Assembly: GCF_023955645.1 (NCBI RefSeq)
Contig: NZ_JAMXHU010000008.1
Location: 21,501-53,500, forward strand
DNA: 32,000 nucleotides
Reading direction: 5' to 3'
Source: Ralstonia mojiangensis
GTDB taxonomy: Bacteria; Pseudomonadota; Gammaproteobacteria; Burkholderiales; Burkholderiaceae
Position numbers and translations under genes: made by a program. Under the pieces are notes generated by a model. The model was given only the letters and a program-made list of their open reading frames with translations, was not told where the DNA came from and made no database searches. Positions 17,136-32,000 of this stretch are shown here, in pieces. Within the stretch, counting starts at the first letter, position 1. Each line of letters opens with the position of its first letter.

Positions 17136-18205
17136 CTACGACTCCCCGACAACGATGGATTGCGCTGCTGGCGGCCGCCCTGGTGATGGCTGGCGGAGCG
17201 TTCGCGTGGAAGGCTTTACGGCAAGAGGGCCCCGGCAAGGGCTTTGCGAGCGGCAATGGCCGCATCGAGGCCACAGAAATCGATGTGGCCACCAAGCTGC
17301 CTGGCCGCGTGCAGGACATTCTGGTGGACGAGGGCGACTTCGTGACGGCCGGCCAGCCGCTTGCGCACATGCAGGTGCAGACGCTGGAAGCGCAACGCGA
17401 CGAGGCCCTGGCGCGGCAGCAGCAAGCGGTCTCTGCCGTGGCGAGTGCGCAGGCCCAGGTGGCCGTGCGAGAGGCCGATCGGCAGGCTGCGCTGGCGCAG
17501 ATTGCCCTGCGCGAGAGCGACCTGGATGCCGCTCAGCGGCGGCTGGCGCGTTCTGAAACGCTGTCGCACGAAGGCGCTTCGTCAATGCAGGAGCTGGACG
17601 ACGACCGCGCCCGCGTGCGCAGCGCCAAGGCCGCGCTGGTGGCGGCCCGCGCGCAAGCCGAGGCCGCGCAGGCGGCCGTGCTGGCCGCTCATACGCAGGT
17701 GGCCGGCGCCGGTTCCACCGTCAAGGCAGCAGACGCAACCGTATTGCGCATCAAGGCCGATATTGACGACAGCGCCTTGACGGCCCCGCGCGACGCCCGT
17801 GTGCAATACCGCATTGCCCAGCCCGGTGAGGTGCTGGCCGGCGGCGGGCGGCTGCTCAACCTCGTGGATCTTTCCGACGTCTACATGACCTTTTTCGTGC
17901 CGGAGACGGACGCGGGCCGCATCGCCATGGGCAGCGAGGTGCGTATCGTGCTGGACGCTGCGCCGCAATACGTGATTCCGGCGCGCGTGTCCTTTGTGGC
18001 CAGCACCGCGCAATTCACGCCCAAGACCGTGGAGACGGCCAGCGAGCGCCAGAAGCTGATGTTCCGCGTGAAGGCGCAGATCGATCGCGATCTGCTGCGT
18101 AAGCACTTGAAGCTGGTGAAGACCGGCCTGCCCGGCATGGCGTGGCTCAAGCTCGACACGCAGGCCGAATGGCCGGCCGCCCTGGCGATCAAGGTCCCGC
18201 AGTGA
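17132..18205 (+). CDS. HlyD-family membrane fusion (periplasmic adaptor) protein, YhiI-like
   Basis: The 357-aa ORF has an N-terminal TM anchor, [20 protein letters not shown], a long Ala/Gln-rich coiled coil and a C-terminal barrel. Its start overlaps the OMF stop (ATGA). Confidence 0.9.
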
Positions 18206-20985
18206 CGCGGTCTGCCGAGCCATCCCCCTTGCATGAGGTGCCCCTCGCGGCGCCGGTGGCGAGCCTTGCCGGCGTGAGCCTGCGCTACCGCAAGACGCTG
18301 GCGCTGGATGGCGTCACGCTTGACCTGCCTGGCGGCTGCATGGTCGGGCTGATCGGTCCGGACGGCGTGGGCAAGTCCAGCCTGCTGTCATTGGTGGCCG
18401 GCGCGCGTGCCCTGCAGGACGGTGCGGTACATGTGCTGGGCAGCGACATGGGCGACCACCGTGCGCGCGCGGCGGTCGGCCCACGCATTGCTTACATGCC
18501 GCAAGGGTTGGGGCGCAACCTGTACCCCACGCTGTCGATCGAGGAAAACCTGCAGTTCTTCGGGCGCCTGTTCGGCCACGATGCAGCGGAGCGCCGCCGC
18601 CGCATTGATGCCCTCACGGCCAGCACCGGCCTGCGGGCGTTTCTCTCGCGGCCTGCCGGCAAGCTGTCGGGTGGCATGAAGCAGAAGCTGGCGTTGTGCT
18701 GCGCGCTGATCCACGACCCGGACCTATTGATCCTGGACGAGCCGACCACGGGCGTCGACCCGCTCTCGCGCAGGCAGTTCTGGGACTTGATTGCCAGTAT
18801 TCGCGCCACGCGCCCGGGCATGAGCGTGATCGTGGCCACCGCGTACATGGAAGAGGCCGAACGCTTCGACTGGCTGGTCGCCATGGACGCGGGGCAGGTG
18901 CTCGCCACCGGCACACCGGCTGGCCTGCGCAGCCGTGCGGGTACCGATTCCCTCGAGGCCGCCTTCATTGCACTGCTTCCGCTGACGCGCCGGCAGGGGC
19001 ATCACGCCGTGGTCGTGCCGCCCCTGGTGGCCGGTGCAGAAGACGATGTTGCGGTGCAAGCGAACGGCCTGACCATGCGCTTTGGTGATTTTGTCGCGGT
19101 CGACCACGTCGACTTCCGCATCCGTCGTGGAGAGATCTTCGGCTTTCTCGGCTCGAACGGCTGCGGCAAATCGACCACCATGAAGATGCTCACCGGCCTG
19201 CTGCCTGCCAGCGAGGGCCAGGCGTGGCTGTTTGGCCATCCGGTCGACCCGAAAGACATCGACACACGCCGCCGCGTGGGGTACATGTCGCAGGCGTTCT
19301 CGCTGTATGGCGAGCTGACCGTGCGTCAGAACCTTGTGCTGCATGCGCGTCTGTTCCAGGTGCCCGAAGCCGAGGTGCAGTCGCGTGCGGCTGAGATGCT
19401 GACCCGCTTCGGCCTGCAGGAGGTGTCCGACAGCCTGCCTCAGAGCTTGCCGCTGGGCATGCGGCAGCGTTTGTCGCTGGCGGTGGCGATGGTGCACAAG
19501 CCGGAGCTGCTGATTCTGGATGAGCCGACCTCGGGCGTGGACCCGGTCGCGCGCGATATGTTCTGGCGCCTGATGATCGACCTCGCACGGCGGGATCGCG
19601 TGACCATCTTCATCTCCACGCACTTCATGAACGAGGCCGAGCGATGCGACCGCATCTCGCTCATGCACGCCGGCCGGGTGCTGGTAAGTGATGCGCCCGC
19701 TGCGCTGGTGCGCGCTCGCGGCACGCAGACGCTGGAGCAGGCGTTCGTAGTCTATCTGCAGGAGGCTGCCGAAGCGTCTGCGGGCACCGACGAGGTTGCT
19801 GCGCCGCTGCCGGTGCGCACGGCGGCGGCCAGCGCACCTGCCGGCATACCCGCCCGCCGCCGCTTCAGTCTTGCGCGCGCATTGAGCTATTCGCAACGTG
19901 AGGCGCTGGAGCTGCGCCGCGACCGCGTGCGCGCCACGCTGGCGCTGCTGGGCACGGCCATCCTTATGTTCATCATCGGATATGGCATCAGCCTGGACGT
20001 GGAGAACCTGACCTACGCCGTGCTGGACCGCGACCAGACCGTGCTCTCGCACGACTACACGCTCAACCTGGCGGGCTCGCGTTATTTCATCGAAAAACCC
20101 CCAATTCGCGACTACGCTGAGTTGGACCGCCGCATGCGCAACGGCGAGTTGTCGCTGGCGATTGAAATCCCGCCTGGCTTTGCACGCGACGTGGAACGCG
20201 GCGCGGCTGTCCAGATCGGTGCCTGGGTGGACGGTGCCATGCCCACCCGCGCCGAAACCGTGCGCGGTTACGTGCAGGCCATCCACCAGCTTTGGCTTGC
20301 GGATACTGCGGTGCACCGGCTGGGGGTGCGTCTGGCGGCGCCCAGCAGCATCGAAACGCGCTATCGCTACAACCCCGACGTGAGAAGCCTGCCTGCCATG
20401 GTGCCCGCCGTGATTCCGATGCTGCTGATGATGATTCCCGCCATGCTGGCGGCGTTGTCGGTGGTGCGCGAAAAGGAGTTGGGCTCCATCATTAATTTCT
20501 ACGTGACACCGGTCACTCGCGCGGAGTTCGTGCTTGGAAAGCAGTTGCCGTATATCGTGCTCGCCATGCTGAACTTCCTCTTGCTGGCACTGCTGGCAGT
20601 GACGGTGTTCGGTGTGCCGATCAAGGGCAGCTTTGCGACGCTCGCGTTGGGGGCGCTGATCTTCGTGACGTGTTCGACAGGTTTCGGGCTGTTTGCGTCC
20701 ACCTTCACGCAAAGCCAGATCGCGGCCATGTTCGTCACCATGATCGGCACGATCATTCCGTGCGTGCAATTTGCAGGGCTGCTCAATCCCGTGTCGTCGC
20801 TGGAAGGAGCGGGGGCCATGATCGGGCGTGTGTATCCCGCCACGCACTTCCTGACCATCAGCCGGGGCGTCTTCAGCAAGGCGCTGGATATGGGGGCGTT
20901 GGGCAGCGCCTTCTGGCCGCTCCTGGCGGCGGTGCCGGTCATCCTGGGCGCCACCTTGCTAATGCTGCGCAAGCAGGATCGGTAG
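18202..20985 (+). CDS. Fused ABC protein: two ATPase domains plus a C-terminal ABC-2 permease (RbbA/YhiH-like)
   Basis: Two Walker A motifs ([18 protein letters not shown]), two ABC signatures ([16 protein letters not shown]) and two Walker B motifs (LLILDEPT twice) are followed by six predicted TM helices. I prefer GTG 18202, which overlaps the HlyD stop (GTGA), over the track start at 18142. Confidence 0.9.
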
Positions 20986-20997
20986 GAGAGCCACGCC

Positions 20998-22149
20998 ATG
21001 CCGAGCCTTCAAGCTGATCGACGCACCGCCCGCCTGAATAACATCTTCCGCCTTGGTATCAAGGAGCTGCGAAGCCTGGCGCGCGACTCGATGATGCTGG
21101 TGTTGATCGTCTACACCTTCACCCTGTCGATCTACGTGGCGGCAACCGCCATGCCAGAGAGCCTGCACAATGCCTCGATCGCCATCGTTGATGAAGACAG
21201 CTCGCCGCTGTCGGCGCGCATTGTCTCGAGCTTCTATCCTCCGCATTTCCGCACGCCTGCGTTGATTCCGCTCACGGAGGTGGACCCGGGCATGGACAGC
21301 GGCCGCTATACGTTCGTGCTCGATATCCCGCCCAACTTCCAGCGCGATGTGCTGGCCGGACGCGCACCGTCCATCCAGCTCAACATCGACGCCACGCGGA
21401 TGAGCCAGGCCTTTACCGGCAACGGTTACATCCAGCAGATCGTTTCGGGCGAGGTGAGCACCTTCCTGCAGCGCCACCGCGCCGCGCCCGCCACACCGGT
21501 CGACCTGGTGCTGCGCACGCGCTTCAACCCCAACCTGGAGCAGACGTGGTTCGGCTCGTTGATGGAGATCATCAACAACGTCACCATGCTGTCGATCATC
21601 CTGACCGGCGCCGCACTCATCCGCGAACGCGAGCACGGCACGATCGAGCACCTGCTGGTGATGCCAGTCACGCCATTCGAGATCATGGTGTCCAAGGTCT
21701 GGTCGATGGGACTGGTGGTGGTGTTCGCCGCGCTGGTGGCGCTGGTGTTCGTGGTGCAGGGCGCGCTGCATGTACCGATCGAAGGCTCGATCCTGCTGTT
21801 CATGCTGGTGGCCACGCTGCATCTGTTTGCCACGACCTCCATGGGGATCTTTCTTGCGACGGTGGCGCGGTCCATGCCGCAGTTCGGCATGCTGCTGGTC
21901 CTGGTGCTGCTGCCACTGCAGTTGCTCTCGGGCGGCACCACCCCGCGCGAGAGCATGCCCAGCGTGGTGCAGGACATCATGCTGGCCGCGCCGACCACGC
22001 ATTTTGTATCGGCGTCGCAAGCCATTCTTTATCGCGGTGCGGGGCTCGAGGTCGTGTGGCCGCAATGTCTGGCCATCTGCGTCATCGGCACCGTGCTGTT
22101 TGTCGCATCATTGACGCGCTTTCGCCAAACCATCAGCCAGATGGCATAA
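20998..22149 (+). CDS. ABC-2 type transporter permease (YhhJ-like)
   Basis: The 383-aa ORF has an N-terminal TM, a large periplasmic loop and a C-terminal ABC-2 membrane domain. An AGGAGA RBS lies 12 nt after the preceding stop. Confidence 0.9.
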   Translation: MPSLQADRRTARLNNIFRLGIKELRSLARDSMMLVLIVYTFTLSIYVAATAMPESLHNASIAIVDEDSSPLSARIVSSFYPPHFRTPALIPLTEVDPGMDSGRYTFVLDIPPNFQRDVLAGRAPSIQLNIDATRMSQAFTGNGYIQQIVSGEVSTFLQRHRAAPATPVDLVLRTRFNPNLEQTWFGSLMEIINNVTMLSIILTGAALIREREHGTIEHLLVMPVTPFEIMVSKVWSMGLVVVFAALVALVFVVQGALHVPIEGSILLFMLVATLHLFATTSMGIFLATVARSMPQFGMLLVLVLLPLQLLSGGTTPRESMPSVVQDIMLAAPTTHFVSASQAILYRGAGLEVVWPQCLAICVIGTVLFVASLTRFRQTISQMA

Positions 22150-22158
22150 GGAGCCAAC

Positions 22159-22665
22159 ATGGATACACCTGCCAACGTGCCTCTCGCGCTCCAAAAGGCG
22201 CAGATCGCATTCGGATTGCAGGCATTGGGTCTGCTCAAGACAACACGGCAGCACTGGTATGCACTGGGCGCCGAGTTGCTCGCCCAAGACGTCGCCCGCA
22301 CCGAGTCTGCGCTGGCCGACCTGCAAAGCGTCGAGGACTGGAGCGCGTTTGCAGCACTGCTGCCCAACGCATTTTGGCAGGCCAGCCAGCGCACCATGGA
22401 TGTACTGCAAGGCGTGCTGCAGACGGCCATCTCGAACCAGTCGAGCCTCGTGGCGGATTACCAGCGCGTCATGCTGGAATGGCAACAGGCTTCCGTACGC
22501 GCGTTGAGCACGACCGGCAACGCCATGCCGGTCCATACAGCGCTGCAGGGCATGCTATCGGCGTGGGGCGTGCCGGGCGATGCATTGCTCCGCTCTGCAA
22601 CCGAGCGCTCAAATCCTGTCCGTACACCCGGCAAGGGCAACGGTCAGCTTCACAAAGCTTCCTGA
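22159..22665 (+). CDS. Hypothetical protein, tentatively phasin-family-like (PHA-granule-associated)
   Basis: The 168-aa ORF has a perfect AAGGAG RBS and lies 9 nt after the previous stop. It is predicted all-helical and Q/A/L-rich (LALQKAQIAFGLQALGLL...LADLQSVEDWSAFAALLPNAFWQASQRTMDVLQG), reminiscent of Phasin_2 proteins. The functional call rests only on composition and context. Confidence 0.55.
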   Translation: MDTPANVPLALQKAQIAFGLQALGLLKTTRQHWYALGAELLAQDVARTESALADLQSVEDWSAFAALLPNAFWQASQRTMDVLQGVLQTAISNQSSLVADYQRVMLEWQQASVRALSTTGNAMPVHTALQGMLSAWGVPGDALLRSATERSNPVRTPGKGNGQLHKAS

Positions 22666-22674
22666 CGAACACAC

Positions 22675-24120
22675 ATGGGCCCCGATCATCTGCCTGTACC
22701 GCCGGCGTTGCTACCGGCCGGCGATCTGAGCGTGGTGCGCAATCGCACCTTTGACGAAATTGCCATTGGCGACACGGTTGCCATCCTGCGCACGCTCACA
22801 GCGGAGGACATCCAACTTTTTGCCGTGTTGTCAGGGGACGTCAACCCGCAGCACCTGGATCCTGAGTTTGCCGCGTCCACGCGCTTTCACGGTGTGATTG
22901 CCCACGGCATGCTGGGCGGAGCGCTTATTTCCGCTTTGCTCGGCACGCGTTTGCCGGGGCCGGGAACGATCTACCTTGGGCAGACGCTGAGGTTCCTTGC
23001 ACCGGTGCGCATTGGCGACACCTTGACCATTCGCGTGACGGTGGTCAGCAAGGAGGATGAGAGAAAGCGGCTCAAGCTGGCATGCACGTGTACAAACGAC
23101 AGCGGCACAGTGGCCATCACGGGCGAGGCAGAGGTCATCGCGCCCACCGAGCGGATCGAGCGTCCGCGCACCACGCTGCCGGATGTGCGGATCACCACCG
23201 GCAGCGATGGCATCCATCGGTTGCTCGACCATGTGCGGCCTCTTGGTGCGATTCGTATGGCCATCGTCCACCCGTGCGATGCGCTGAGCCTTTCTGGCGT
23301 GATGGATGCGCATGCTGAAGGGCTGATCGTGCCTTGCCTCGTCGCCCCGTATGCCAAGCTGATGCGTGTAGCCGCCGAAGCCGGCCTCGACCTCAGCGGC
23401 ATCGAGATCGAAGACGTGCCGCACAGCAGTGCCGCTGCCACTCGCGCGGTGGAGCTTGTGACGCAGGGCAGGGCAGAGGCGCTGATGAAAGGCAGCCTGC
23501 ATACCGACGAGTTGATGGCGGCGGTGGTGCGCGAGGAGGCCGGACTGCGCACCAAACGTCGGATCAGCCATTGCTTCCTGATGCAGTCGCCCGCGTATCC
23601 GCGCCCGTTTATCGTGACGGATGCCGCCATCAACATCGCGCCGACCCTGGATCAAAAGGCTGACATCGTCCGCAACGCCATCGACCTGGCCCATGCGATC
23701 GGCGTTGAACGGCCTCGGGTGGCGATCCTTGCTGCGGTCGAGACCGTGAACCCGCGCATGCCTGCCACGCTCGATGCGGCCGCGCTATGCAAGATGGCGG
23801 ACCGCGGCCAGATTGAGGGCGGAGTGCTGGACGGGCCACTGGCTTTCGACAATGCGGTATCGGCTGCTGCCGCGCGCATCAAAGGCATTGTTTCGGAAGT
23901 GGCAGGGCAGGCCGATGTGCTGGTGGTGCCCGATCTGGAAAGCGGCAACATGCTCGCCAAACAGTTGGAATACCTGGGTGGCGCAGCCAGCGCAGGCATT
24001 GTGCTCGGCGCCCGCGTGCCCATTGTTTTGACCAGCCGCGCCGACTCGCGCGAATCGCGCATCGCGTCGTGCGCCCTTGCCACGTTGCTGGCCCACCGCT
24101 ACCGCAATCTACCGCCATGA
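22675..24120 (+). CDS. pta: Bifunctional MaoC-like (R)-specific enoyl-CoA hydratase / phosphate acetyl(butyryl)transferase
   Basis: The N-terminal hot-dog MaoC domain (FAVLSGDVNPQHLDPEFAASTRFHGVIAHGM) is fused to a PTA_PTB domain (AIVHPCD...MKGSLHTDELM...VLVVPDLESGNMLAKQL...TSRADS). It is 481 aa. Confidence 0.9.
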   Translation: MGPDHLPVPPALLPAGDLSVVRNRTFDEIAIGDTVAILRTLTAEDIQLFAVLSGDVNPQHLDPEFAASTRFHGVIAHGMLGGALISALLGTRLPGPGTIYLGQTLRFLAPVRIGDTLTIRVTVVSKEDERKRLKLACTCTNDSGTVAITGEAEVIAPTERIERPRTTLPDVRITTGSDGIHRLLDHVRPLGAIRMAIVHPCDALSLSGVMDAHAEGLIVPCLVAPYAKLMRVAAEAGLDLSGIEIEDVPHSSAAATRAVELVTQGRAEALMKGSLHTDELMAAVVREEAGLRTKRRISHCFLMQSPAYPRPFIVTDAAINIAPTLDQKADIVRNAIDLAHAIGVERPRVAILAAVETVNPRMPATLDAAALCKMADRGQIEGGVLDGPLAFDNAVSAAAARIKGIVSEVAGQADVLVVPDLESGNMLAKQLEYLGGAASAGIVLGARVPIVLTSRADSRESRIASCALATLLAHRYRNLPP

Positions 24121-25295
24121 ACGATTGCATCGTCGTACTGAACTGCGGCTCGTCGAGCATCAAGTTTGCAATGTTCGATGCCACCTTGCACCCATTGCCG
24201 CGTGTGCCCATGTGGAGCGGGAAAGTGGAGGGGATTGGCACTGATCACCCCACGGCGACGGAGGCTGGCGCGCCGACACAGGCGCTAGCGCTAGACAGCG
24301 CGCAGCCGTATCACGCCGCGCTCATGCACATTCGCCAGCGTGTCGAGCACAGGCTGGACGGCCGCCGCCTGATGGCTGTGGCGCATCGGGTGGTGCATGG
24401 CGGCTCCAAATACTTCGCGCCGGTACGCGTGAACGCCGATGTGCTGTCCGATCTGCGCAGCTACATTCCGCTGGCGCCGCTGCATCAGCCGTTTGCGTTG
24501 GAGGCCATCGAGGCGCTGCTGTCGGACTTGCCCGATGTGCCGCAAGTCGCGTGCTTCGATACCGCGTTCCACCGCACGCTGCCGCAGGTTGAGACGATGC
24601 TGCCGCTGCCGTACACGGCATGGGAGCGCGGTCTGCGTCGTTATGGCTTTCATGGGTTGTCGTACGAGTACATGTCGATTGCTTTGCAGGAACGGCATGG
24701 CGACATCGCACTCGGGCGAACCATCGTCGCGCACCTGGGCAGTGGCGCCAGCCTGTGTGCAATGCACGGGCTGAAGAGCGTGGCCACAACGATGGGGTTT
24801 TCCGCCCTCGATGGCCTGATGATGGGGACGCGATGTGGCGCGCTTGATCCGGGTGCAGTGCTCTACATGATGGAAACGGAGCATCTTTCCCCCACGCAGG
24901 TTGGGCACGTGCTGTATCACGAATCGGGCCTGCTTGGGGTGTCAGGGCTGTCTTCCGACCCGCGCGACATCATTGCGCACGAGGCTGACAACCCGCGCGC
25001 GCAAGCGGCGCTCGCGCTCTATGTGCGCCGGATCGTCCGCGAGATCGGCGCCTTGGTGGCAGTACTCGGCGGCCTGGATTTTCTCGTCTTCACGGCGGGT
25101 ATTGGCGAGCACAACGCCGTACTGCGCGAGCGCATTGTGGGTGGACTTGGTTATTTGGGTGCCAATCTGGATGACGAGGCCAACCAAGCGCACGCAGCAG
25201 TCATTTCCACTTCAGCGAGCCGGATTCGCGTGGCGGTAGAGCCTACAAACGAGGAGTGGGTGGCAGCACGGCATGCCGTCAAGCTGTGCTCATAA
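24117..25295 (+). CDS. ackA: Acetate (short-chain acyl) kinase
   Basis: From ATG 24117 the product begins MNDCIVVLNCGSSSIKFAMF. It also has HRVVHGG, FDTAFH, YGFHGLSYEY and FTAGIGEHN. The start overlaps the pta stop (ATGA). The track start at 24069 is an extension. Confidence 0.9.
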   Translation: MNDCIVVLNCGSSSIKFAMFDATLHPLPRVPMWSGKVEGIGTDHPTATEAGAPTQALALDSAQPYHAALMHIRQRVEHRLDGRRLMAVAHRVVHGGSKYFAPVRVNADVLSDLRSYIPLAPLHQPFALEAIEALLSDLPDVPQVACFDTAFHRTLPQVETMLPLPYTAWERGLRRYGFHGLSYEYMSIALQERHGDIALGRTIVAHLGSGASLCAMHGLKSVATTMGFSALDGLMMGTRCGALDPGAVLYMMETEHLSPTQVGHVLYHESGLLGVSGLSSDPRDIIAHEADNPRAQAALALYVRRIVREIGALVAVLGGLDFLVFTAGIGEHNAVLRERIVGGLGYLGANLDDEANQAHAAVISTSASRIRVAVEPTNEEWVAARHAVKLCS

Positions 25296-25752
25296 GGTTT
25301 TTTGGGGAAATCGCTGATTTCCAGGGCCTGCTGTCGTGTCGCGAGGATGCATCGTATTTATTTAACATAACACAAATAGGTTGAGTCCTCGATTGGCTCA
25401 ACGGCGCGGCTTCGGCGGGTGAGGGTGTCACAAAATTTGTGACACCTAGGCCGACCGCAACGAGGAGGGCGACCAGGCCGCTATGCGCCATCCTCGGTGA
25501 AAAAACTTCCCACAACGATCGCTGGCCAGCTCGTTCGGCGCGGTCAGCGTCTGCTGCCATGATGATCGGCAGCGGGTTCTCCATTCCCAGCTCGAGGGCA
25601 ACGCGCAGACATTGCTCGTTGTCCATGATTCGCAGGCCTTTCCGGTAATTGTTGACGGCACTGTGCGACCAGCCCATGTGCTCGCACAGTGCTTTGTCGG
25701 TCTTCAGGCCGTGTCGCTCGATCACGGCATCCAGGTACTTCACGCTTTTCAT
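25279..25752 (-). CDS. Prophage HTH repressor-like protein with a predicted TM segment; the ORF crosses the dif-like junction
   Basis: From ATG 25752 (RBS AAGAGGGG) the product begins MKSVKYLDAVIERHGLKTDKALCEHMGWSHSAVNNYRKGLRIMDNEQCLRVALELG, an HTH. A hydrophobic stretch (GLVALLVAVGLGVTNFV) follows. Codons ICVMLNKYD are encoded by the dif-like site. The 3' end overlaps the ackA 3' end by 17 nt. It is divergent from the phage replication genes. Confidence 0.7.
   Translation of the reverse strand: MKSVKYLDAVIERHGLKTDKALCEHMGWSHSAVNNYRKGLRIMDNEQCLRVALELGMENPLPIIMAADADRAERAGQRSLWEVFSPRMAHSGLVALLVAVGLGVTNFVTPSPAEAAPLSQSRTQPICVMLNKYDASSRHDSRPWKSAISPKNLMSTA
25360..25387 (-). other. dif-like XerC/XerD recombination site (candidate attL/attR junction)
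   Basis: The plus strand reads ATTTAACATAA-CACAAA-TAGGTTGAGTC. The first 11 nt are the exact reverse complement of the E. coli dif XerD arm (TTATGTTAAAT), followed by a 6-nt spacer. The arm at the XerC position, on the phage side, is degenerate. Confidence 0.6.
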
Positions 25753-25771
25753 GGTCGACACCCCTCTTGTT

Positions 25772-25824
25772 AATCCACGATCCGTGGATTAATCTACGGT
25801 CCGTGGATTCACGGAACGTGGATT
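25772..25824. promoter_or_regulatory. Tripartite palindromic operator array in the repressor/replication divergent region
   Basis: O1 is AATCCACG-atc-CGTGGATT (25772-25790, perfect). O2 is AATCTACG-gtc-CGTGGATT (25791-25809). O3 is GATTCACG-gaa-CGTGGATT (25806-25824). CGTGGATT therefore recurs three times. The array lies 20 nt from the repressor start codon. Confidence 0.5.
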
Positions 25825-25864
25825 TAGACGAAATATAACCGGTTAACCGGGCAGGGGGTAAACG

Positions 25865-26080
25865 ATGCAGCAGAGAGACCACAGGCAGCTTGACCTGGTC
25901 GGCGGCCTTCAGCACCCGCACCAGGCACAGATCCTCCACGTCCTCGGCTCCTGCCGTGACATCCACCCCAGCTATTACTGCGATCGCGACGAGGCTCTTC
26001 GTCGCATGTCTGAGCTCGTGCACAGCCACGCTGGTGCCGATGCTGAGCTGCCCGACGTTCTCGCGGATCGGTACTGCTGA
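25865..26080 (+). CDS. Prophage small hypothetical protein (71 aa), first gene of the rightward transcription unit
   Basis: An AGGGGG RBS lies 6-7 nt upstream of the ATG. Third-codon positions are strongly G/C/T-biased in this frame. Its stop overlaps the next ATG (TGATG). Confidence 0.4.
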   Translation: MQQRDHRQLDLVGGLQHPHQAQILHVLGSCRDIHPSYYCDRDEALRRMSELVHSHAGADAELPDVLADRYC

Positions 26081-26199
26081 TGCGCTGCGCCCATTTCGTT
26101 CTGTGCGTTTGGTTCTTGTTCGGCTTGCTGTGTGTTTGCGCCGGTGTCGGCCTGGCCGTTGTCGCCTTTTGCAAGGCTTTCTCTCTGGTGGTGGGCTGA
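26080..26199 (+). CDS. Prophage 39-aa hydrophobic Cys-rich miniprotein (below the ORF-track threshold)
   Basis: It translates as MRCAHFVLCVWFLFGLLCVCAGVGLAVVAFCKAFSLVVG. Both ends are TGATG overlaps, with the 71-aa ORF upstream and Rep downstream, which suggests translational coupling. Confidence 0.3.
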   Translation: MRCAHFVLCVWFLFGLLCVCAGVGLAVVAFCKAFSLVVG

Positions 26200-27302
26200 T
26201 GCGAGTCGATCTGGAAACCGGGGAGATTCTCGACCTGGAAGCAGGTGAGGGCGCCTGCCAGCCGAAGGACGGAGCGGCAGCGACGGACGAGGCGCCTGCA
26301 GGCGCTTGCCCCCCGCTACTAACAGGGGGGGAAAGTCCAAACGGAGGCAGAGCGGTCATTGACTGGCTGTCTTTCACGTTCACGGAATGGCAGGAATCGA
26401 CGCTTATGTCGATGATGCTGGCGCTGTTGTCGACCTGGTGCGGTCGAAACGTTGGTGCCGAGCCGGCGAATGGCCGTCACGGCTTCAAGCAGTCTCAGCT
26501 GCTGTACGTGTTCCACGAACACAAGTTCGTTCCTGTCGGCGTCATGGCCTGGGGCGGGGAGCAGCAGCGGGGCAGGGCATATGTCTCGCTCAACGGTACG
26601 TGGTGCAGCTTGATCGAGCCGGACATGTGGCCGGTCGTGCGCGGTTGGATTGAGTCGGTTCGCGCGACTCTCACGCGTGTTGACCTTGCAGCTGACTTCG
26701 TCAACGGTGAGTACTCGATTGAGGATGCCGTCGACTGGTATCGATCGGGCGAGTTCAATGCTGGCGGTCGTATGCCGAAGCATTCTTGCGAGGGCGATTG
26801 GCTGCATGCCAATCCGATCGGTGGTCGCACGCTGTACGTCGGAAAGCGTGGTAACGGGAAGTTCTCTCGCCTCTACGAGAAGGGCAAGCAGCTCGGCAAT
26901 GCCGACAGTCCTTGGATGCGTTTCGAGTGTGAGCTCGGCAACCGCGATCGCATTCTTCCCCACGACATCATCACTCGGCCCACGGAGTACTTCGCGGGTC
27001 AATACAAGGTGTGCGCACGCATCGTCGATGCAGCAGCTGCGCGCATTCGCACGACGAAGCTCGAAGGCGAGATCACCATCGGTCGGCTGAAAGCCGCTGT
27101 GAAAACGTCTTACGGTCGCTTCTTCCATGTGCTCCGTCTTATGACTCCCGATCACGCCAGGCTGGTCGACGAGCTCGCAGTTGAGGGCGTGCCCTCACGC
27201 CTGGCGAAGTTCGCACTACATGAGTTCCTCCACCCCAAAGCGTCAGAGACGCCAACTGAAAAAGGACCGCCACCATGGCACTCGCAACAACCTTCAACGT
27301 GA
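26199..27302 (+). CDS. Filamentous-phage replication initiation protein (Rep_trans/RstA-like)
   Basis: From ATG 26199 the product begins MRVDLETGEILDLE and contains RAVIDWLSFTFTE, the conserved DWLxxT(F) opening of rolling-circle Rep_trans proteins. YVGKRGNGKFSRLYEKGKQLG also fits. The 103 upstream codons in the track ORF (from 25890) look like non-coding GC-rich read-through. Confidence 0.8.
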   Translation: MRVDLETGEILDLEAGEGACQPKDGAAATDEAPAGACPPLLTGGESPNGGRAVIDWLSFTFTEWQESTLMSMMLALLSTWCGRNVGAEPANGRHGFKQSQLLYVFHEHKFVPVGVMAWGGEQQRGRAYVSLNGTWCSLIEPDMWPVVRGWIESVRATLTRVDLAADFVNGEYSIEDAVDWYRSGEFNAGGRMPKHSCEGDWLHANPIGGRTLYVGKRGNGKFSRLYEKGKQLGNADSPWMRFECELGNRDRILPHDIITRPTEYFAGQYKVCARIVDAAAARIRTTKLEGEITIGRLKAAVKTSYGRFFHVLRLMTPDHARLVDELAVEGVPSRLAKFALHEFLHPKASETPTEKGPPPWHSQQPST

Positions 27303-27610
27303 TCATCAAGGGCGCTTCGTTCTTCGATGGTGAGATCGATGGCAAGCATCAGAACAGTGGTTGCCTGCATATCGAAGATGAGCTGGAGACGCGTTCCGGC
27401 CGCAACAAAGGTACTCGCACGGTCGAGTACAAGACGATCGATGCTGACCTCGTCAAGCCTTTGGTCGAGAAGTTCGAGTTCCCGATCTCGGCCGAGATCA
27501 CGATCGAGAAGGTGAACACCAAGCGCGGTACCGGTGACATCGTCACGGCCATTAAGCCGATGAGTCGTGTCGCTGGTAACCCGGGCGTTGAAGCCAAGAA
27601 GGTGGCGTGA
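27275..27610 (+). CDS. Putative ssDNA-binding protein (gV-like, by size and position)
   Basis: The 111-aa ORF has an AAAAGGA RBS and overlaps the Rep 3' end by 28 nt. It sits directly after Rep, as in other inoviruses. No motif-level confirmation is possible here. Confidence 0.6.
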   Translation: MALATTFNVIIKGASFFDGEIDGKHQNSGCLHIEDELETRSGRNKGTRTVEYKTIDADLVKPLVEKFEFPISAEITIEKVNTKRGTGDIVTAIKPMSRVAGNPGVEAKKVA

Positions 27611-27759
27611 TGCTCGCGGTGCTCGCGTGGTGCGGTGTTCGTTGGGCGGCTCGCCGTCTCGATCGGAAGCGATTCGCGAATCGCTACATGGTTGCAGCGA
27701 AAGCGTCGCGTCGGCAGCGTTTCTGGGTCGCTGTCTCGCGGGCACTGTTGAGGTATTGA
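27610..27759 (+). CDS. Prophage 49-aa miniprotein (hydrophobic N-terminus, basic tail; below the ORF-track threshold)
   Basis: It translates as MLAVLAWCGVRWAARRLDRKRFANRYMVAAKASRRQRFWVAVSRALLRY. Its ATG overlaps the preceding stop (GTGATG). Its stop is 1 nt before the next ATG. Confidence 0.35.
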   Translation: MLAVLAWCGVRWAARRLDRKRFANRYMVAAKASRRQRFWVAVSRALLRY

Positions 27760-27760
27760 C

Positions 27761-27994
27761 ATGGCTCAGTGCGTGCAAATCGTCAGTGGTCAGCTGCAGC
27801 TCGATAGCACTCCAGCATCGTCGTGCACCGGGTATCTGTTGCTGACTGCTGATGAGGTCACGCTGTTGCATGCGGTGCCGCCACTCTCTGCGAGTGACGG
27901 TGCCCTTATTGGAAGCGCGATGCTCGGTCTTTGGGCTCTCGCTTTCGTTTTTCGGTCCGCAGCGCGGGCCATCATTCAACGTGAAGAGGAGTAG
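27761..27994 (+). CDS. Prophage small membrane protein (77 aa, C-terminal TM), possible minor virion protein
   Basis: The ORF ends in ALIGSAMLGLWALAFVFRSAARAIIQREEE. It is tightly packed immediately upstream of the major coat gene. Confidence 0.55.
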   Translation: MAQCVQIVSGQLQLDSTPASSCTGYLLLTADEVTLLHAVPPLSASDGALIGSAMLGLWALAFVFRSAARAIIQREEE

Positions 27995-27997
27995 GGC

Positions 27998-28234
27998 ATG
28001 AATAAGTTTTCGCAAGTTGCAAAGCGCGTTGGTTCGAGCGTGTACGGCAAGACGGCTGTGGTTGCGGGTGGTCTCGGTCTGGCTGGCCTGGCACACGCGG
28101 ACGGTCCCGATGTGTCGGCTGTCGTCGCTGTCATCACTGGTGGCCTGGCTGCGATCGGTCTCATCGGCGTGGCTGTGCTGTCGGTGTACGGCACGATCGC
28201 GATCTACAACTGGGTCAAGCGCCCGATCAAGTGA
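27998..28234 (+). CDS. Major coat protein (pVIII-like) precursor
   Basis: A strong GAAGAGGAG RBS precedes the ORF. The 78-aa product has a signal peptide ending LAGLAHA/DGPD. The roughly 44-aa mature part has an acidic N-terminus, a hydrophobic core (VVAVITGGLAAIGLIGVAVLSVYGTIAIY) and a basic DNA-contact tail (NWVKRPIK). Confidence 0.85.
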   Translation: MNKFSQVAKRVGSSVYGKTAVVAGGLGLAGLAHADGPDVSAVVAVITGGLAAIGLIGVAVLSVYGTIAIYNWVKRPIK

Positions 28235-28271
28235 TGCACGCAGGGGAGACGTCCCCGGCCTGGTGTGCGAC

Positions 28272-28296
28272 GGGGACTTCGGTCCCCGTTTTTATT
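28272..28296 (+). terminator. Intrinsic terminator after the major coat gene
   Basis: GGGGAC-ttcg-GTCCCC (UUCG tetraloop) is followed by GTTTTTATT. A second weaker hairpin (GGGGA-gacg-TCCCC) lies at 28243-28256. Confidence 0.65.
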
Positions 28297-28378
28297 GGAG
28301 CTCGTCATGGAAGGCTACTTCGTTCTCATTGCGATAGCGGGTGCTGGATGGATTCTTTTCTCGTGAGGGTGGTGAGCT

Positions 28379-29824
28379 ATGCCCTGGTCCTTTTTTTCTC
28401 GTCCTGCGCGCATCTGGACAGGTTTCCGGCTGGTTCTTGTGACACTGGTTTTAGTTTCTGTCTGTGGCCTGAGTTGGGCTTCTGACACTACTGGGCGTCA
28501 GTGGTCACTTGTTGGTGGTGGCTTCGAGAGCGGTTCTGCTGCTGGTTCCTGTCAGGCGTATTTGGCTTATCTGATTTCTGCGGGGCAGGCGCAGTCCACT
28601 GCGACGTTCGATACCGTGCAGTTGTCGTCGAGCGGAATGTCCGGAGAGTGTTTCTTGACTGCGCCTGGTCAACATTACGTTTTCACCTCTGTTGCTGTTA
28701 CTGGTAGCTGCGTTGCGGGTTATGTGTTGCAACCTGATGGGTCGTGCAAGTCGAATCAGCCTTCGTGTCCTGCAGCTGGCGCTAGCGCACCAGGTGGTAA
28801 CAGCGCGACTGGCACCAGTCCGACGCAGACGATCTTGAATCCGCAGGTCTGTGTTGGTGGATGTACTTACAACTACAGCTCGTATTGGACCGGTGCCACG
28901 CCTGGTCAGAACGGGAGTTATCCCGCGCAGTACACGGGTCTTAGCTCAACCGGTTCTGCGTGCAGTGGGACCGGGACCCCTTCAGCTGCTCAACCATCGC
29001 CTACTGATCCTCCTAAACAGTGTGGTGTTAGGCAGTACGCCGGCACTGTGAATGGTGCGAACGTATGTATCGATTATCCGATCCAGACCACTGGCGGTAG
29101 CACGTCGACGACGACAACTGATCAGCCTGCGAGTAGTCCGGCTGCGAGTTCGAGTAGCTCGTCTCAGACGAGCACCACGTGTGATGGCACCACTTGTACG
29201 ACTACGACGGTGGTTACTGGTGGCGGTGGTGGCGTTGGTGGTGGAGGCAGTGGCAGTGGGGCGAGTGGGGCTGCAGCGAGTCCTTGCAGCACTTCGCAGG
29301 TCAGTACTGGCGCTCAGGTTAATGGTGGTCCTGGTACGTGTACGTCTACGACCACTGAGCCGCAAGAAGACTATTGCAAGAAGAATCCGACAGCCGCGCA
29401 GTGTAAGAAAAATTCTGCGAGTGGTGGTGCCACGTGTGATGCGCCTCCGACCTGTGATGGTGATGCGATTAGCTGTGCGATGTTGCAGCAGCAGTGGAAT
29501 ACACGCTGTGAATTGCAGAAGCACGATGACTCCACGGATCTCGGTTCAAAGCTTGCCAATGGCCAGGATCCTCTCGCCGGTAAGTTGCCTACGCCTGGTG
29601 GTGCCGAACAGGTGGATATGAGCTCGAAGTTCTCGAATGTGGACGACATGGGTTTCGTCGCTCAGTGTTTGCCGGATATCGATATTGCTTTGCCACTGCC
29701 TGGTGGTTCGTCCAATTTTCACGTGTCTACAGCGCCGCTGTGTGACATCGGGAAGTTGCTCGGTTATCTCAACATGCTGAGCACGTTGATGCTTTGCGCC
29801 TACATGCTCAAGGGGAGTTTCTAA
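28379..29824 (+). CDS. Minor coat / host-adsorption protein (pIII-like)
   Basis: The 481-aa ORF has a signal peptide (LVLVTLVLVSVCGLSWA/SD) and Cys-containing N-terminal domains. It has Ser/Thr-rich (STSTTTTDQPASSPAASSSSSSQTSTT) and Gly-rich (GGGGGVGGGGSGSGASG) linkers, and a C-terminal hydrophobic anchor (LLGYLNMLSTLMLCAYML). Confidence 0.8.
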   Translation: MPWSFFSRPARIWTGFRLVLVTLVLVSVCGLSWASDTTGRQWSLVGGGFESGSAAGSCQAYLAYLISAGQAQSTATFDTVQLSSSGMSGECFLTAPGQHYVFTSVAVTGSCVAGYVLQPDGSCKSNQPSCPAAGASAPGGNSATGTSPTQTILNPQVCVGGCTYNYSSYWTGATPGQNGSYPAQYTGLSSTGSACSGTGTPSAAQPSPTDPPKQCGVRQYAGTVNGANVCIDYPIQTTGGSTSTTTTDQPASSPAASSSSSSQTSTTCDGTTCTTTTVVTGGGGGVGGGGSGSGASGAAASPCSTSQVSTGAQVNGGPGTCTSTTTEPQEDYCKKNPTAAQCKKNSASGGATCDAPPTCDGDAISCAMLQQQWNTRCELQKHDDSTDLGSKLANGQDPLAGKLPTPGGAEQVDMSSKFSNVDDMGFVAQCLPDIDIALPLPGGSSNFHVSTAPLCDIGKLLGYLNMLSTLMLCAYMLKGSF

Positions 29825-30142
29825 ATGCCTTTCGCTGCTTTGTTGGCTTCGGCCATTGTTGGTTTTCTCGCGCAGGCCTGCGTGTCACTGGTGGGTCGTG
29901 TGTTGGTCGCTCTCGGTATCGGCTTCGTGATGTTTACGGGCGTCGACGCGATGATGAGTGGGTTGAAGACGCTGTTTCAGCAGTACGTGGCTGGTACCGG
30001 TACGTTGCCCTGGAATGTGATCGGCATTCTTGGTGTGCTGAAGGTTGGCACCTCCATGAACATGATCCTCACGACGTTGGGGATTCGCGCGTCGCTTTCC
30101 GGTTTGAGCGGTGGTTCGATTCGCAAGATGGTTCAGAAGTGA
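29825..30142 (+). CDS. pVI-like minor coat protein (DUF2523-like)
   Basis: The 105-aa ORF has three hydrophobic segments. Its ATG abuts the pIII-like stop (TAAATG). Size and position between pIII and pI fit inovirus pVI. Confidence 0.65.
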   Translation: MPFAALLASAIVGFLAQACVSLVGRVLVALGIGFVMFTGVDAMMSGLKTLFQQYVAGTGTLPWNVIGILGVLKVGTSMNMILTTLGIRASLSGLSGGSIRKMVQK

Positions 30143-30149
30143 GGCCGCT

Positions 30150-30335
30150 ATGCGTATGACTTGCGAGGGGTGTGGTGTGGAGTTTGAGACGTTTACATGC
30201 GACTACGTGTGCGTGCGGTGTGAGACGGCGGGGCAGGTTGCCTTGGATGAGTTGAACGATGAGCCGTGTCGCATGTGTACTGGGATTGGTGAGTGGTGGG
30301 ATCGGCCTTGTCCCGTCTGCCTTGGAAAGGGTTAA
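30150..30335 (+). CDS. 61-aa zinc-finger miniprotein with DnaJ-type CxxCxGxG motifs
   Basis: It translates as MRMTCEGCGVEFETFTCDYVCVRCETAGQVALDELNDEPCRMCTGIGEWWDRPCPVCLGKG. This gives four CxxC pairs, the last two as CxxCxGxG. I prefer ATG 30150, just after the pVI-like stop, over the track start at 30111. Confidence 0.6.
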   Translation: MRMTCEGCGVEFETFTCDYVCVRCETAGQVALDELNDEPCRMCTGIGEWWDRPCPVCLGKG

Positions 30336-30344
30336 GGTGCTGAC

Positions 30345-31493
30345 ATGCTGACACTCATCACTGGTCAACCTGGTAACGGAAAAAGTCTCTACACGATCGC
30401 CACGGTGGAGGCGAAACGCCAGGCCGAGAGTCGTCCGGTCTTCTATCACGGCATTCCTGAGCTCACGCTTCCGTGGACCAAGCTGGAGGATCCTGCGAAG
30501 TGGTACGAGTGCCCTGAGAAGTCGATCATCGTGATCGATGAGGTTCAGAAGGTCATGCCGCCGAGGCCTTCGAGCTCGAAGCCTCCGCAGCTCGTGTCGG
30601 AGCTGGAGACGCATCGGCATCGTGGGTTCGATCTGTTCTTCATGACGCAGGACCCTAGCCTGGTCGACAACCATCTGAAGAAGCTCGCCGGCGAGCATAT
30701 TCACCTGGTTCGTCAGTGGGGTCGGCAAAAGGCGGACCTGTTCAAGATGCAGAAGGTGCAGGACCCGACGAATGCGAACTTGAAGCGCGCGTTGCACAGC
30801 ACGTTTCCGTATCCGAAGCAGGTGTTCGACTGGTACAAGTCCGCCGATGCTCACACGCACAAGAAGTCGATTCCGAAGAAGTATTACCTGCTGTATGCCT
30901 TGCCGGTCTTGCTCGTCGTTGCACTGCTCGGTGGCGTATGGAAGTTGTGGAAGTTGTCGCATCCTGACCAGGTGAAGCCTGCGGCTGCAGCTGCTGCACC
31001 TGGTGCGTTACCTGGTCAGCCTGGTGTTCCTGATGCACCAGCTGCGGCACAGCGTGGTCCGATGACTGCGACGGAGTATCTCGCGAGCTATCAGCCTCGC
31101 GTCGCTGGCCTGCAGTACACGGCTCCCGCGTATGACGAGCTCACGAAGCCGTCGAGGGTGCCGGTGCCTGCCGCCTGTGTGCAGATCCGTGGTGGCTGTG
31201 AATGCTGGACGCAGCAGGGCACGCACCTGGAGACGACGCAGCAGGTGTGTGACCAGGCGGTGAAGCGTGGTTTTTTCGAGGCGTTTGAACCTGACGGTCG
31301 CGCTAGGAACCAGGAGCGTGTCCAGGTGGCGCAGCAACCCGCGTCTGCGCCCGCTGCACAGCCTCAGGAGGTTCGGATGGTGTTGGACGTCGCCAAGCCT
31401 GAGGAAAAGGCCCAGGAGCCTCGCAAACGCACGGTCATAGGGTCGGGGAGGGCTCGGCGCGTTGATGAGCTTGAAGCCTTTCCAGAGGGTTAG
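30345..31493 (+). CDS. zot: Zot-like assembly ATPase (pI homologue)
   Basis: It has an N-terminal P-loop (LITGQPGNGKSLY), Walker B (IIVIDEVQ) and a central TM (YYLLYALPVLLVVALLGGVWKLW). A periplasmic region with GGCECWTQQGTHL follows, then an Ala/Pro/Gln-rich tail. Confidence 0.9.
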   Translation: MLTLITGQPGNGKSLYTIATVEAKRQAESRPVFYHGIPELTLPWTKLEDPAKWYECPEKSIIVIDEVQKVMPPRPSSSKPPQLVSELETHRHRGFDLFFMTQDPSLVDNHLKKLAGEHIHLVRQWGRQKADLFKMQKVQDPTNANLKRALHSTFPYPKQVFDWYKSADAHTHKKSIPKKYYLLYALPVLLVVALLGGVWKLWKLSHPDQVKPAAAAAAPGALPGQPGVPDAPAAAQRGPMTATEYLASYQPRVAGLQYTAPAYDELTKPSRVPVPAACVQIRGGCECWTQQGTHLETTQQVCDQAVKRGFFEAFEPDGRARNQERVQVAQQPASAPAAQPQEVRMVLDVAKPEEKAQEPRKRTVIGSGRARRVDELEAFPEG

Positions 31494-31670
31494 CGTCTAG
31501 CGTCGGGAGTGTCCGCGCCTTTGACCAGGCGGTAGAGGTGGGGCGTGGGCAGGATCTCCGGCGGTTGTCGCACGGCTAGTGCGGCTGGCGGGACCGAGCA
31601 GCGGGTATGACCAGGAGTATCGAAAATGGTCGCGTGGATCCAAACACCCCATTCTTTGCAAGCTCGCTTT

Positions 31671-32000
31671 TCAGCAGTGGTTGACTGCCATTTGCTCGTC
31701 TAGGGTCCGCAGGTTGTTCTTGATCATCTCCACCATGAACGCACCGCCTGGCGAGTTCATTGTTTCCACCAACGATGCACGGCTTTTCGCCAGGCTTAGG
31801 CAGTTCGATTTCCGCTGTTCTTCGCGCTGTTGCTTCGCAGCTCGTTCGGCCGGTGTGCCGAATTCCATCGTCGCTTCCATCGCTCGTTCACACGGCTTGT
31901 CCGTGATGACCGTTTTGCCGTTGATCTTGCAGGTGTTGACCGTCTGTGCCGCGGCTGTGGGGATGGCGATACAAACGAGGAGCGGTAGGATTGTGCGCAT
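31671..32000 (-). CDS. Secreted small protein (DUF4124-like N-terminal motif), possibly prophage cargo
   Basis: The 109-aa ORF starts exactly at the window end. It has a signal peptide (MRTILPLLVCIAIPTAAAQT), then CKINGKTVITDKPC and a charged helical region. Its codon style is closer to the phage than to the host genes. Confidence 0.55.
   Translation of the reverse strand: MRTILPLLVCIAIPTAAAQTVNTCKINGKTVITDKPCERAMEATMEFGTPAERAAKQQREEQRKSNCLSLAKSRASLVETMNSPGGAFMVEMIKNNLRTLDEQMAVNHC

Follow-up and report, generated by a model that had tools for sequence, protein, structure and literature searches.

A probable inovirus prophage at a dif-like XerC/XerD site behind ackA on a Ralstonia megaplasmid

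The stretch of DNA analysed here (the window, 32,000 nucleotides (nt) from Ralstonia mojiangensis) carries between position 25360 and its last base, 32000, what is very probably an inovirus prophage of ~6.96 kb, of which the left ~95% is visible. Its host replicon is a Ralstonia megaplasmid, and the insertion lies 64 nt behind ackA, at a dif-like XerC/XerD site. Integrase-less filamentous prophages at such sites are a kind already well described in Ralstonia, and the element is a new member rather than a new kind. Prophages that are integrated at dif in this way alter the virulence and physiology of Ralstonia, and RSS0 and RSS1 raise or lower wilt virulence depending on the repressor. Inovirus prophages at dif that encode neither an integrase nor a secretin are well documented in this genus and also on chromosome 2 of Cupriavidus (PMC10011098). 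With the element, the family is now also represented at a megaplasmid locus, in a Ralstonia lineage other than R. solanacearum. The element further accounts for a shift of nucleotide composition within the window and shows where a Xer site lies behind ackA.

The gene content was checked by profile searches against the Pfam (PF) and PHROG (phrog) families, and all features are collected in Table 1. The prophage part comprises a replication initiator (Rep) together with a small protein of the single-stranded DNA (ssDNA)-binding kind, an inovirus-type major coat protein, and pIII-like and pVI-like proteins followed by the assembly protein pI/Zot. These genes form a compact array on the plus strand, from which only the repressor and the DUF4124 gene depart (both on the minus strand), and their junctions overlap or measure 0-9 nt, except for two short gaps and the intergenic region. 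Among the open reading frames (ORFs) of 25.3-32 kb the searches yielded no match to a tyrosine or serine recombinase or to a secretin. The GC content drops from 0.642 in the host part to 0.584 in the prophage, T at third codon positions rises from 12.7% to 25.6%, and the codons GGT, GCT and CGT increase within their own families from 15% to 50% (of Gly), 8% to 26% and 15% to 27%, respectively. The first-pass annotation, made from the letters alone, had read the region as an inovirus with complete gene order, tight or overlapping junctions, a less GC-rich, T-ending codon style and neither a recombinase nor a pIV-type secretin; the profile matches for Rep, coat proteins, pIII-like and pVI-like proteins and Zot, the junction distances and the composition bear this reading out in all its parts, and the homology of Rep, coat and Zot to inovirus proteins identifies the element as an inovirus.

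The prophage copy looks intact, because the lengths of its core ORFs all equal those called in a circular relative, the Logan contig L250. In the ORF listing, no frameshifts or stop codons interrupt the prophage reading frames.

The left attachment site (attL) reads ATTTAACATAA CACAAA TAGGTTGAGTC at 25360-25387, and the start of the element had thus been placed accurately to one base when it was put at 25359. Its XerD arm, ATTTAACATAA, is the reverse complement of TTATGTTAAAT, a sequence present in the dif sites of Escherichia coli and R. solanacearum GMI1000 (PMC2731167), and this 11-mer occurs once in the 32-kb window versus 0.05 occurrences expected by chance. The XerC-side arm, TAGGTTGAGTC, bears no resemblance to a XerC arm. 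The 3' end of the repressor ORF contains the dif-like site, an arrangement published for RSS0: in phiRSS0 the phage attachment site (attP, 5'-TATTTAACATAAGATAAAT) lies within the 3' end of ORF13, and XerCD integration at dif alters or truncates the C-terminus of the ORF13 product (PMC3816273, PMC4471427).

Accordingly composed is the repressor of the integrated form, of which residues 1-128 are encoded by the phage, residues 129-134 derive from the att core and the last 26 are encoded by the host, the ORF overlapping the ackA stop codon by 17 nt. The 160-amino acid (aa) repressor ORF is therefore to be annotated with caution, as a chimera of phage and host. The tail of the free form, translated from the right end of the closest relative, L217, reads CVMLNRKKLWARLQQALRAIQARQEPAPA up to the stop codon and ends in ...RKKLWARLQQALRAIQARQEPAPA; it is conserved with RSS0 and L084, and the swap of tails was verified by translation. 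Three operator-like repeats (ATCCACGNNCCGTGGATT) accompany the repressor gene. L084 differs in its set of repeats as well as in the N-terminus of its repressor and is for this reason predicted to be of a different immunity type.

An unoccupied counterpart of the locus, which the first-pass annotation had proposed to look for in related genomes, is found in R. edaphi LMG 6871 (contig NZ_CATWEH010000008.1), the sole close relative returned by an AckA scan of genome contigs. This contig is collinear with window positions 14114-25280 at 90% identity and lacks the prophage. It carries instead the empty site ATTTTACATAA TGCAAA TTACACGGCAT (L004:11247), 64 nt after the ackA stop codon and hence at a spacing equal to that in the window, and the 17 nt formed by its XerD arm and centre are identical to the attP core of the circular phage genome L084. 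The host segment of the window furthermore shows 91% identity to p56D2, a 1.8-Mb megaplasmid of R. wenshanensis, and 86% identity to a replicon of 1.98 Mb in Ralstonia sp. RRA.1, and because of these matches the window can be assigned to a Ralstonia secondary replicon. The prophage is absent from both of these megaplasmids. A dif-like site behind ackA was seen only in R. edaphi and in the genome of the window among those compared. Downstream of ackA the DNA of R. wenshanensis, RRA.1 and R. edaphi is mutually unrelated (L256:27304-27420; L257:19310-19480; L004:11183 onward; window ~25296-25359), and ackA therefore borders a hypervariable point.

The right attachment site (attR) is positioned by homology, and it falls outside the window, as had been anticipated. 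A scan of viral sequences for the 17-nt core of attL led to three relatives, L217, L224 and L248. The right end of L217 (IMG/VR 3300025225_000017) shows the order Zot, DUF4124 gene, 81-aa ORF (phrog_27692), ATTTAACATAA CACAAA TTATGCGAACC and host DNA, so that its attR consists of the 17-nt core of the window and a canonical XerC arm, 318 nt past the base equivalent to window position 32000. The L217 contig breaks inside attL, and its repressor region is 96% identical to that of the window. The same core is also found in the attR of L224 and in the attP of L248, ATTTAACATAA CACAAA GCGTTGGCCTG. Since the interval between the equivalent of position 32000 and the att site measures 318 nt in L217 (314 nt in L084), attR is expected near 32.32 kb, which would give a unit of ~6.96 kb. 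If built like that of relatives of the L217, L084 or YO188_1 type, the unseen part would be too short for a recombinase gene. Both ends of a related prophage are visible in YO188_1 of R. solanacearum UW30, where attL (ATTTGACATAA GACAAA CTACCCTGCCT) and attR (ATTTGACATAA GACAAA TTATGCGAAGT) lie 7,693 nt apart; this prophage is flanked by ATTTGACATAAGACAAA, and the XerC arm is canonical at attR. The dif-like attL, the empty site in R. edaphi and the att repeats of these homologues together support the earlier proposal of an integrative mobile element exploiting Xer (IMEX).

A metagenome scan with the 17-nt core was unspecific, most of its 120 matches being chance occurrences in AT-rich DNA, and yielded one contig of interest, L147 (Ga0055525_1000643). 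At L147:13533-13607 a host dif locus still has, beside ATTTAACATAA CACAAA TTACACGATTA, the 47 nt that terminate the phage family on the right, a remnant that looks like the scar of an imprecise loss. The left flank of this locus resembles the dif flank of R. solanacearum, and the locus is an independent occurrence of the TTACACG variant of the XerC arm found in R. edaphi.

From these components the following course of events can be proposed. The phage, which carries no recombinase of its own, would present attP on its double-stranded replicative form, where it would lie in the 3'-terminal part of the leftward-transcribed repressor gene and consist of a canonical XerD arm, a 6-nt centre matching that of the host and a non-canonical XerC-side arm. 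Host XerCD would recombine attP with the megaplasmid site. One product would be the hybrid attL (25360-25387), with the XerD arm and centre of the host followed by the arm of the phage; the other, attR, would join the XerD arm and centre of the phage to the XerC arm of the host and thus regenerate a functional dif, with a predicted core ATTTAACATAACACAAA plus the host XerC arm ~318 nt past window position 32000. In the same step the conserved C-terminal tail of the repressor would be exchanged for the 26 host-encoded residues. The repressor would bind the three ATCCACGNNCCGTGGATT palindromes (25773-25824) and silence the rightward operon, i.e., the genes for Rep, the ssDNA-binding protein, the pVII/IX-like protein, pVIII, pIII, pVI and pI/Zot. 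Upon derepression, Rep would start rolling-circle replication and pI/Zot would assemble virions. Because no pIV is encoded, the virions would be expected to leave the cell through a secretin of the host, as inovirus biology suggests (PMC3816273, PMC10011098).

Several points weigh against this account. The phage-side arm of attL is not recognisable as a XerC-binding sequence, and XerC binding at this arm is assumed. Both attR and the right host flank lie beyond the window, the second repeat being unseen for this copy, whose excision, replicative form and virions are predictions. On the host side, the R. edaphi site has an atypical XerC arm, TTACACGGCAT, the status of the target as a true dif rests on a small R. 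edaphi sample, and the megaplasmids of R. wenshanensis and RRA.1 harbour no dif-like site behind ackA, the motifs GGGNAGGG, which are similar to FtsK-orienting polar sequences (KOPS), staying on the plus strand beyond ackA in both.

The host-side points bear on the question of which site was used. We consider the target probably, although not provenly, the true dimer-resolution dif of the replicon. The ratio of plus-strand to minus-strand KOPS-like GGGNAGGG motifs is 6:0 in the window, upstream of the site, and 0:2 in R. edaphi, downstream of it (small counts), and the GC skew amounts to +0.019 (about 0) upstream in the window versus -0.039 downstream in R. edaphi, as would be expected of a true dif in the R. 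edaphi lineage. The most probable of the alternatives, although itself unlikely, is that the element used a secondary or pseudo-dif, for instance a scar left by earlier elements at the hypervariable point behind ackA, and that the true dif lies elsewhere. This would agree with the missing dif-like site in R. wenshanensis and RRA.1, where KOPS-like motifs remain on the plus strand 12-20 kb further, with the unrelated sequences downstream of ackA in the three relatives, with the atypical XerC arm and with the existence of phage scars beside dif sites, as in L147. However, the polarity of the KOPS-like motifs and the GC skew change sign at the R. edaphi site, the TTACACG arm recurs at the independent dif locus L147 with its left flank like that of the R. 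solanacearum dif, and no other sequence similar to a XerD arm occurs in R. edaphi within 10 kb on either side. In the window as a whole (1-32000), nine of nine GGGNAGGG motifs are found on the plus strand; three of them lie inside the prophage and point at the functional dif predicted at attR.

Somewhat less probable again is a fixed cryptic prophage, which entered via Xer, no longer excises, replicates or makes virions, and persists as an island of repressor and accessory genes. Such a reading could invoke that the activity of this copy is a prediction and its attR is unseen, that the 195-nt insertion between genes VI and I displaced the original context of the Zot translation start, and that the repressor in its prophage form is devoid of the conserved tail. 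Yet the core ORFs are of full length compared with the circular relatives and free of frameshifts and stop codons, close relatives occur as circular molecules, and, since none of the three nearest relatives of the host carries the prophage, it is not an anciently fixed one. It is very improbable that a recombinase encoded beyond the window or supplied in trans (e.g., a transposase or a serine recombinase as used by the Ralstonia RSM-type phages; PMC4471427) inserted the element and that the dif-like sequence is incidental, for although the window leaves out ~5% of the element, the junction coincides exactly with a perfect XerD arm and shows neither a tRNA nor an RSM-type att core, the counterpart of the ~320 nt beyond the window holds only the 81-aa ORF before dif in three relatives, and RSS0, which possesses a homologous repressor-attP module, has its junctions mapped to dif (PMC3816273).

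A BLAST comparison of the prophage region with 50,697 phage records returned substantial matches to Ralstonia inoviruses only, with the phages and prophages YO188_1, YO169_3, p12J and PE226 as the nearest, and none of them covers 80% of the region. Judged by these matches, the element is a mosaic of three modules: a structural module of the p12J/PE226 type, a repressor-attP module of the RSS0 type and a third Rep lineage, and it shows how freely the three modules are exchanged. The segment from the minor coat gene to zot is 77-81% identical at the nt level to p12J, YO188_1 and YO169_3, and the aa identity of Zot is 83% to YO188_1, 79% to p12J, 76% to PE226 and only ~32% to its RSS-group counterparts. 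Over residues 4-127 the repressor matches RSS0 ORF13 at 64% aa identity. The first-pass annotation had noted a resemblance to phages of the phiRSS type, and this holds for the repressor/att module, including the attP in the 3' end of the gene, but not for the structural and assembly module or for Rep.

Rep has only distant counterparts in the phage collection, at 33-41% identity (33-35% for the Reps of PE226, RSS and the p12J group), and its lineage is known only from uncultured relatives. It shares 88% of its aa with the Rep of L084 (IMG/VR 3300017826_000001), a circular genome that carries attP, and is 95% identical at full coverage to the protein P0001 (367 aa), which fixes the Rep start at 26199 and is encoded on the circular 6.6-kb contig L250 (Logan SRR11522596_3511). 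L250 is the best overall relative, with ~5.5 kb aligned at 75-95% identity and an estimated intergenomic similarity of ~65%. At its position 1637 the intergenic element is joined directly to the middle of the repressor gene, and the DUF4124 gene, the 81-aa ORF, attP and the C-terminal half of the repressor are missing; L250 is a putative non-integrating deletion form of the RSS1 kind, which mirrors the relation of RSS1 to RSS0. Alignment to p12J and PE226 covers 42-44% of the query at 71-78% identity, short of a species level of ~95% nt identity and of near-complete collinearity, and the modules for replication and regulation are unrelated or absent; the RSS genomes align with only 8-10% of the query. 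By genome-wide relatedness the element is not a member of the genera Restivirus, Porrectionivirus or Parhipatevirus.

Among the described phages, phiRSS0 (Restivirus RSS1; JQ408219/NC_019548) shares with the element the leftward repressor, the dif-like attP in its 3' end, a palindrome 34 nt from the core and the lack of an integrase and a secretin. XerCD integration at dif changes its repressor C-terminus (PMC3816273), a dependence that we infer here from the sequence. The two differ in Zot (~32% aa identity) and Rep (34%), as well as in the centre of the site (GATAAA in RSS0, CACAAA here), and phiRSS0 integrates in the R. solanacearum chromosome, whereas the element described here occupies a megaplasmid locus. 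The phages p12J (Porrectionivirus p12J; NC_005131) and PE226 (Parhipatevirus) possess a collinear module from minor coat protein to Zot (77-80% nt identity), likewise without a secretin or an integrase, and p12J also shares the intergenic element (85%). In contrast to the element, both are devoid of an RSS0-type repressor, their Reps are only ~35% identical, and p12J contains ORF8, which is absent here. The sole dif-like site of p12J is of the opposite type and on the other strand (canonical XerC arm, degenerate XerD arm), and PE226 has none; because of this opposite type, related structural modules thus appear to be coupled to different types of attP. The p12J site (L001, 122-149, minus strand) reads GGTTTTCATAA TGCAAA TTATGCGAAAC and is framed by the inverted repeat TCAGGTTT/AAACCTGA.

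The overall layout and the att repeats at both ends are found again in YO188_1 (ON170320) and L217, and the Rep lineage on a circular molecule in L084 and L250. Yet none of the four is the same phage, since their modules are shuffled and none contains the 195-nt insertion with its Cys-rich ORF. Further afield, the Vibrio cholerae IMEX classes (CTXphi, VGJphi, TLCphi) and Xanthomonas XacF1/Cf1c are likewise filamentous elements that lack an integrase and employ host XerCD at dif. The attP sites of the CTX, VGJ and Xanthomonas types keep the XerC arm, and the TLC type is without a good XerD arm. Here, in contrast, a canonical XerD arm is combined with a non-canonical arm on the XerC side. As in the element, attP lies within a regulator gene in XacF1 (PMC5666396).

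The unusual make-up of this attP is not confined to the window. Each of the ten repressor-attP modules of RSS0 type that were examined has a non-canonical XerC-side arm next to a host-type centre and a canonical XerD arm, and the XerC-side arm is never recognisably similar to TCGTTGACCTG in L084, L248, RSS0, RSCq, RSS30, RS611, WC36-1, YO006_3 or the window (25377-25387). The same ten modules bear the palindrome GGTGTCACAAA-A-TTTGTGACACC 34-35 nt from the att core (e.g., L084:4236-4258, L002 ~208-232 and RSS0, L085 ~6820-6845); three symmetric pairs of its positions co-vary, and the symmetry is kept even at wobble positions of repressor codons. The palindrome was rejected as an intrinsic terminator, as neither strand shows a T-run, and as a repressor operator, as it is conserved across modules with differing operators. 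A folded ssDNA attP in the manner of CTX was discarded as well, since a second inverted arm of XerD or XerC type is absent from the window, L084, RSS0 and YO188_1.

With little confidence we put forward that RSS0-type repressor-attP modules form a further class of Xer-exploiting elements, defined by a canonical XerD arm, a host-matched centre and no recognisable XerC arm, in which the palindrome (25424-25446) would assist as an accessory protein-binding site or hairpin and the exchange of the repressor tail would act as a switch between the free and the integrated state. Possible openings to something new lie solely in the non-canonical XerC arm, the conserved palindrome and the orphan zinc-finger insertion.

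Table 1. Features of the prophage part of the window (window coordinates; RBS, ribosome-binding site)
Feature	Position	Strand	Evidence and remarks
attL, dif-like XerCD site	25360..25387	+	XerD arm ATTTAACATAA 25360-25370; centre CACAAA 25371-25376; phage-derived non-canonical XerC-side arm TAGGTTGAGTC 25377-25387
Repressor/immunity gene, RSS0 ORF13 homologue	25279..25761	-	phrog_638 4e-39; likely ATG 25752
Perfect 11+11 palindrome GGTGTCACAAA-A-TTTGTGACACC	25424..25446		34-35 nt from att core
Three operator-like 18-nt palindromic repeats ATCCACGNNCCGTGGATT	25773..25824		between repressor and rightward operon
First rightward gene, 71 aa	25865..26080	+	phrog_9247; N-terminus and upstream RBS region conserved in L084
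39-aa hydrophobic ORF	26080..26199	+	start/stop overlap with both neighbours; 39-aa equivalent called in circular L250
Rolling-circle replication initiator (Rep_trans, pII analogue), 367 aa	26199..27302	+	PF02486 1e-24; phrog_453 8e-86
Probable ssDNA-binding protein (pV analogue by position), 111 aa	27275..27610	+	phrog_4994 7.5e-26; 111-aa counterpart in L250
50-aa ORF ahead of coat genes	27607..27759	+	no family match; 49-aa counterpart in L250
Minor coat protein (p12J ORF3 homologue), 77 aa	27761..27994	+	phrog_4644; 77% nt identity to p12J 1334-1567
Major coat protein (pVIII), 78 aa	27998..28234	+	PF05356 Inovirus Coat protein B (Phage_Coat_B) 3.7e-12, above gathering score
Intrinsic-terminator-like hairpin and T-run	28269..28290	+	directly 3' of major coat gene
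pIII-like adsorption/minor coat protein, 481 aa, Gly/Ser-rich linker	28379..29824	+	phrog_4352 6e-92; homologous to p12J ORF5
pVI-like minor coat protein (DUF2523), 105 aa	29825..30142	+	PF10734 1e-20; phrog_1242
195-nt insertion with 61-aa Cys-rich ORF (30150-30335)	30150..30344	+	two CxxCxGxG motifs; TGCTGAC duplication at bounds
Zot/pI assembly ATPase, 382 aa	30345..31493	+	PF05707; phrog_197 5e-86
Conserved non-coding intergenic element (118 nt)	31494..31611		~96% identical to YO188_1, L084 and L250; 85% to p12J
Leftward accessory gene, 109-aa secreted-looking DUF4124 protein, last gene visible in window	31671..32000	-	phrog_7936 1.7e-10; PF13511 just below cut-off

The remainder of the window (1-25.3 kb) is occupied by ordinary metabolic and transport genes, coding for EutBC, ChrA, DbpA, PhaC, an ABC efflux system, Pta and AckA. 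Within the prophage, ORFs of 33 and 84 aa at 28231-28485 were rejected as genes, as they match no family and the terminator behind the coat gene occupies this region. A simple scan picked up no sigma-70-like promoter.

The 195-nt insertion between genes VI and I is absent from p12J, YO188_1, L217, L248 and L250, and its 61-aa Cys-rich ORF re-uses the former ATG of Zot. The product shows a weak match to the DnaJ zinc finger, below the Pfam cut-off, and a search for homologues of the ORF found none. Directly after zot, the intergenic element is conserved to ~96%, compared with 72-85% for the genes on either side and only ~35% for the Reps; it may serve in packaging or as the origin of the minus strand. 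A structured RNA or DNA was rejected for this element, which has no Rfam match and a fold energy no better than that of shuffled sequences (z = +0.67).

The DUF4124 gene is 91.5% identical at the nt level to its counterpart in L217, is also conserved in L084 and has been lost in L250. As it is transcribed leftward like the repressor gene, it is likely expressed in the lysogen, and it is a possible lysogenic-conversion or exclusion gene. Its product begins with an N-terminal signal-like sequence.

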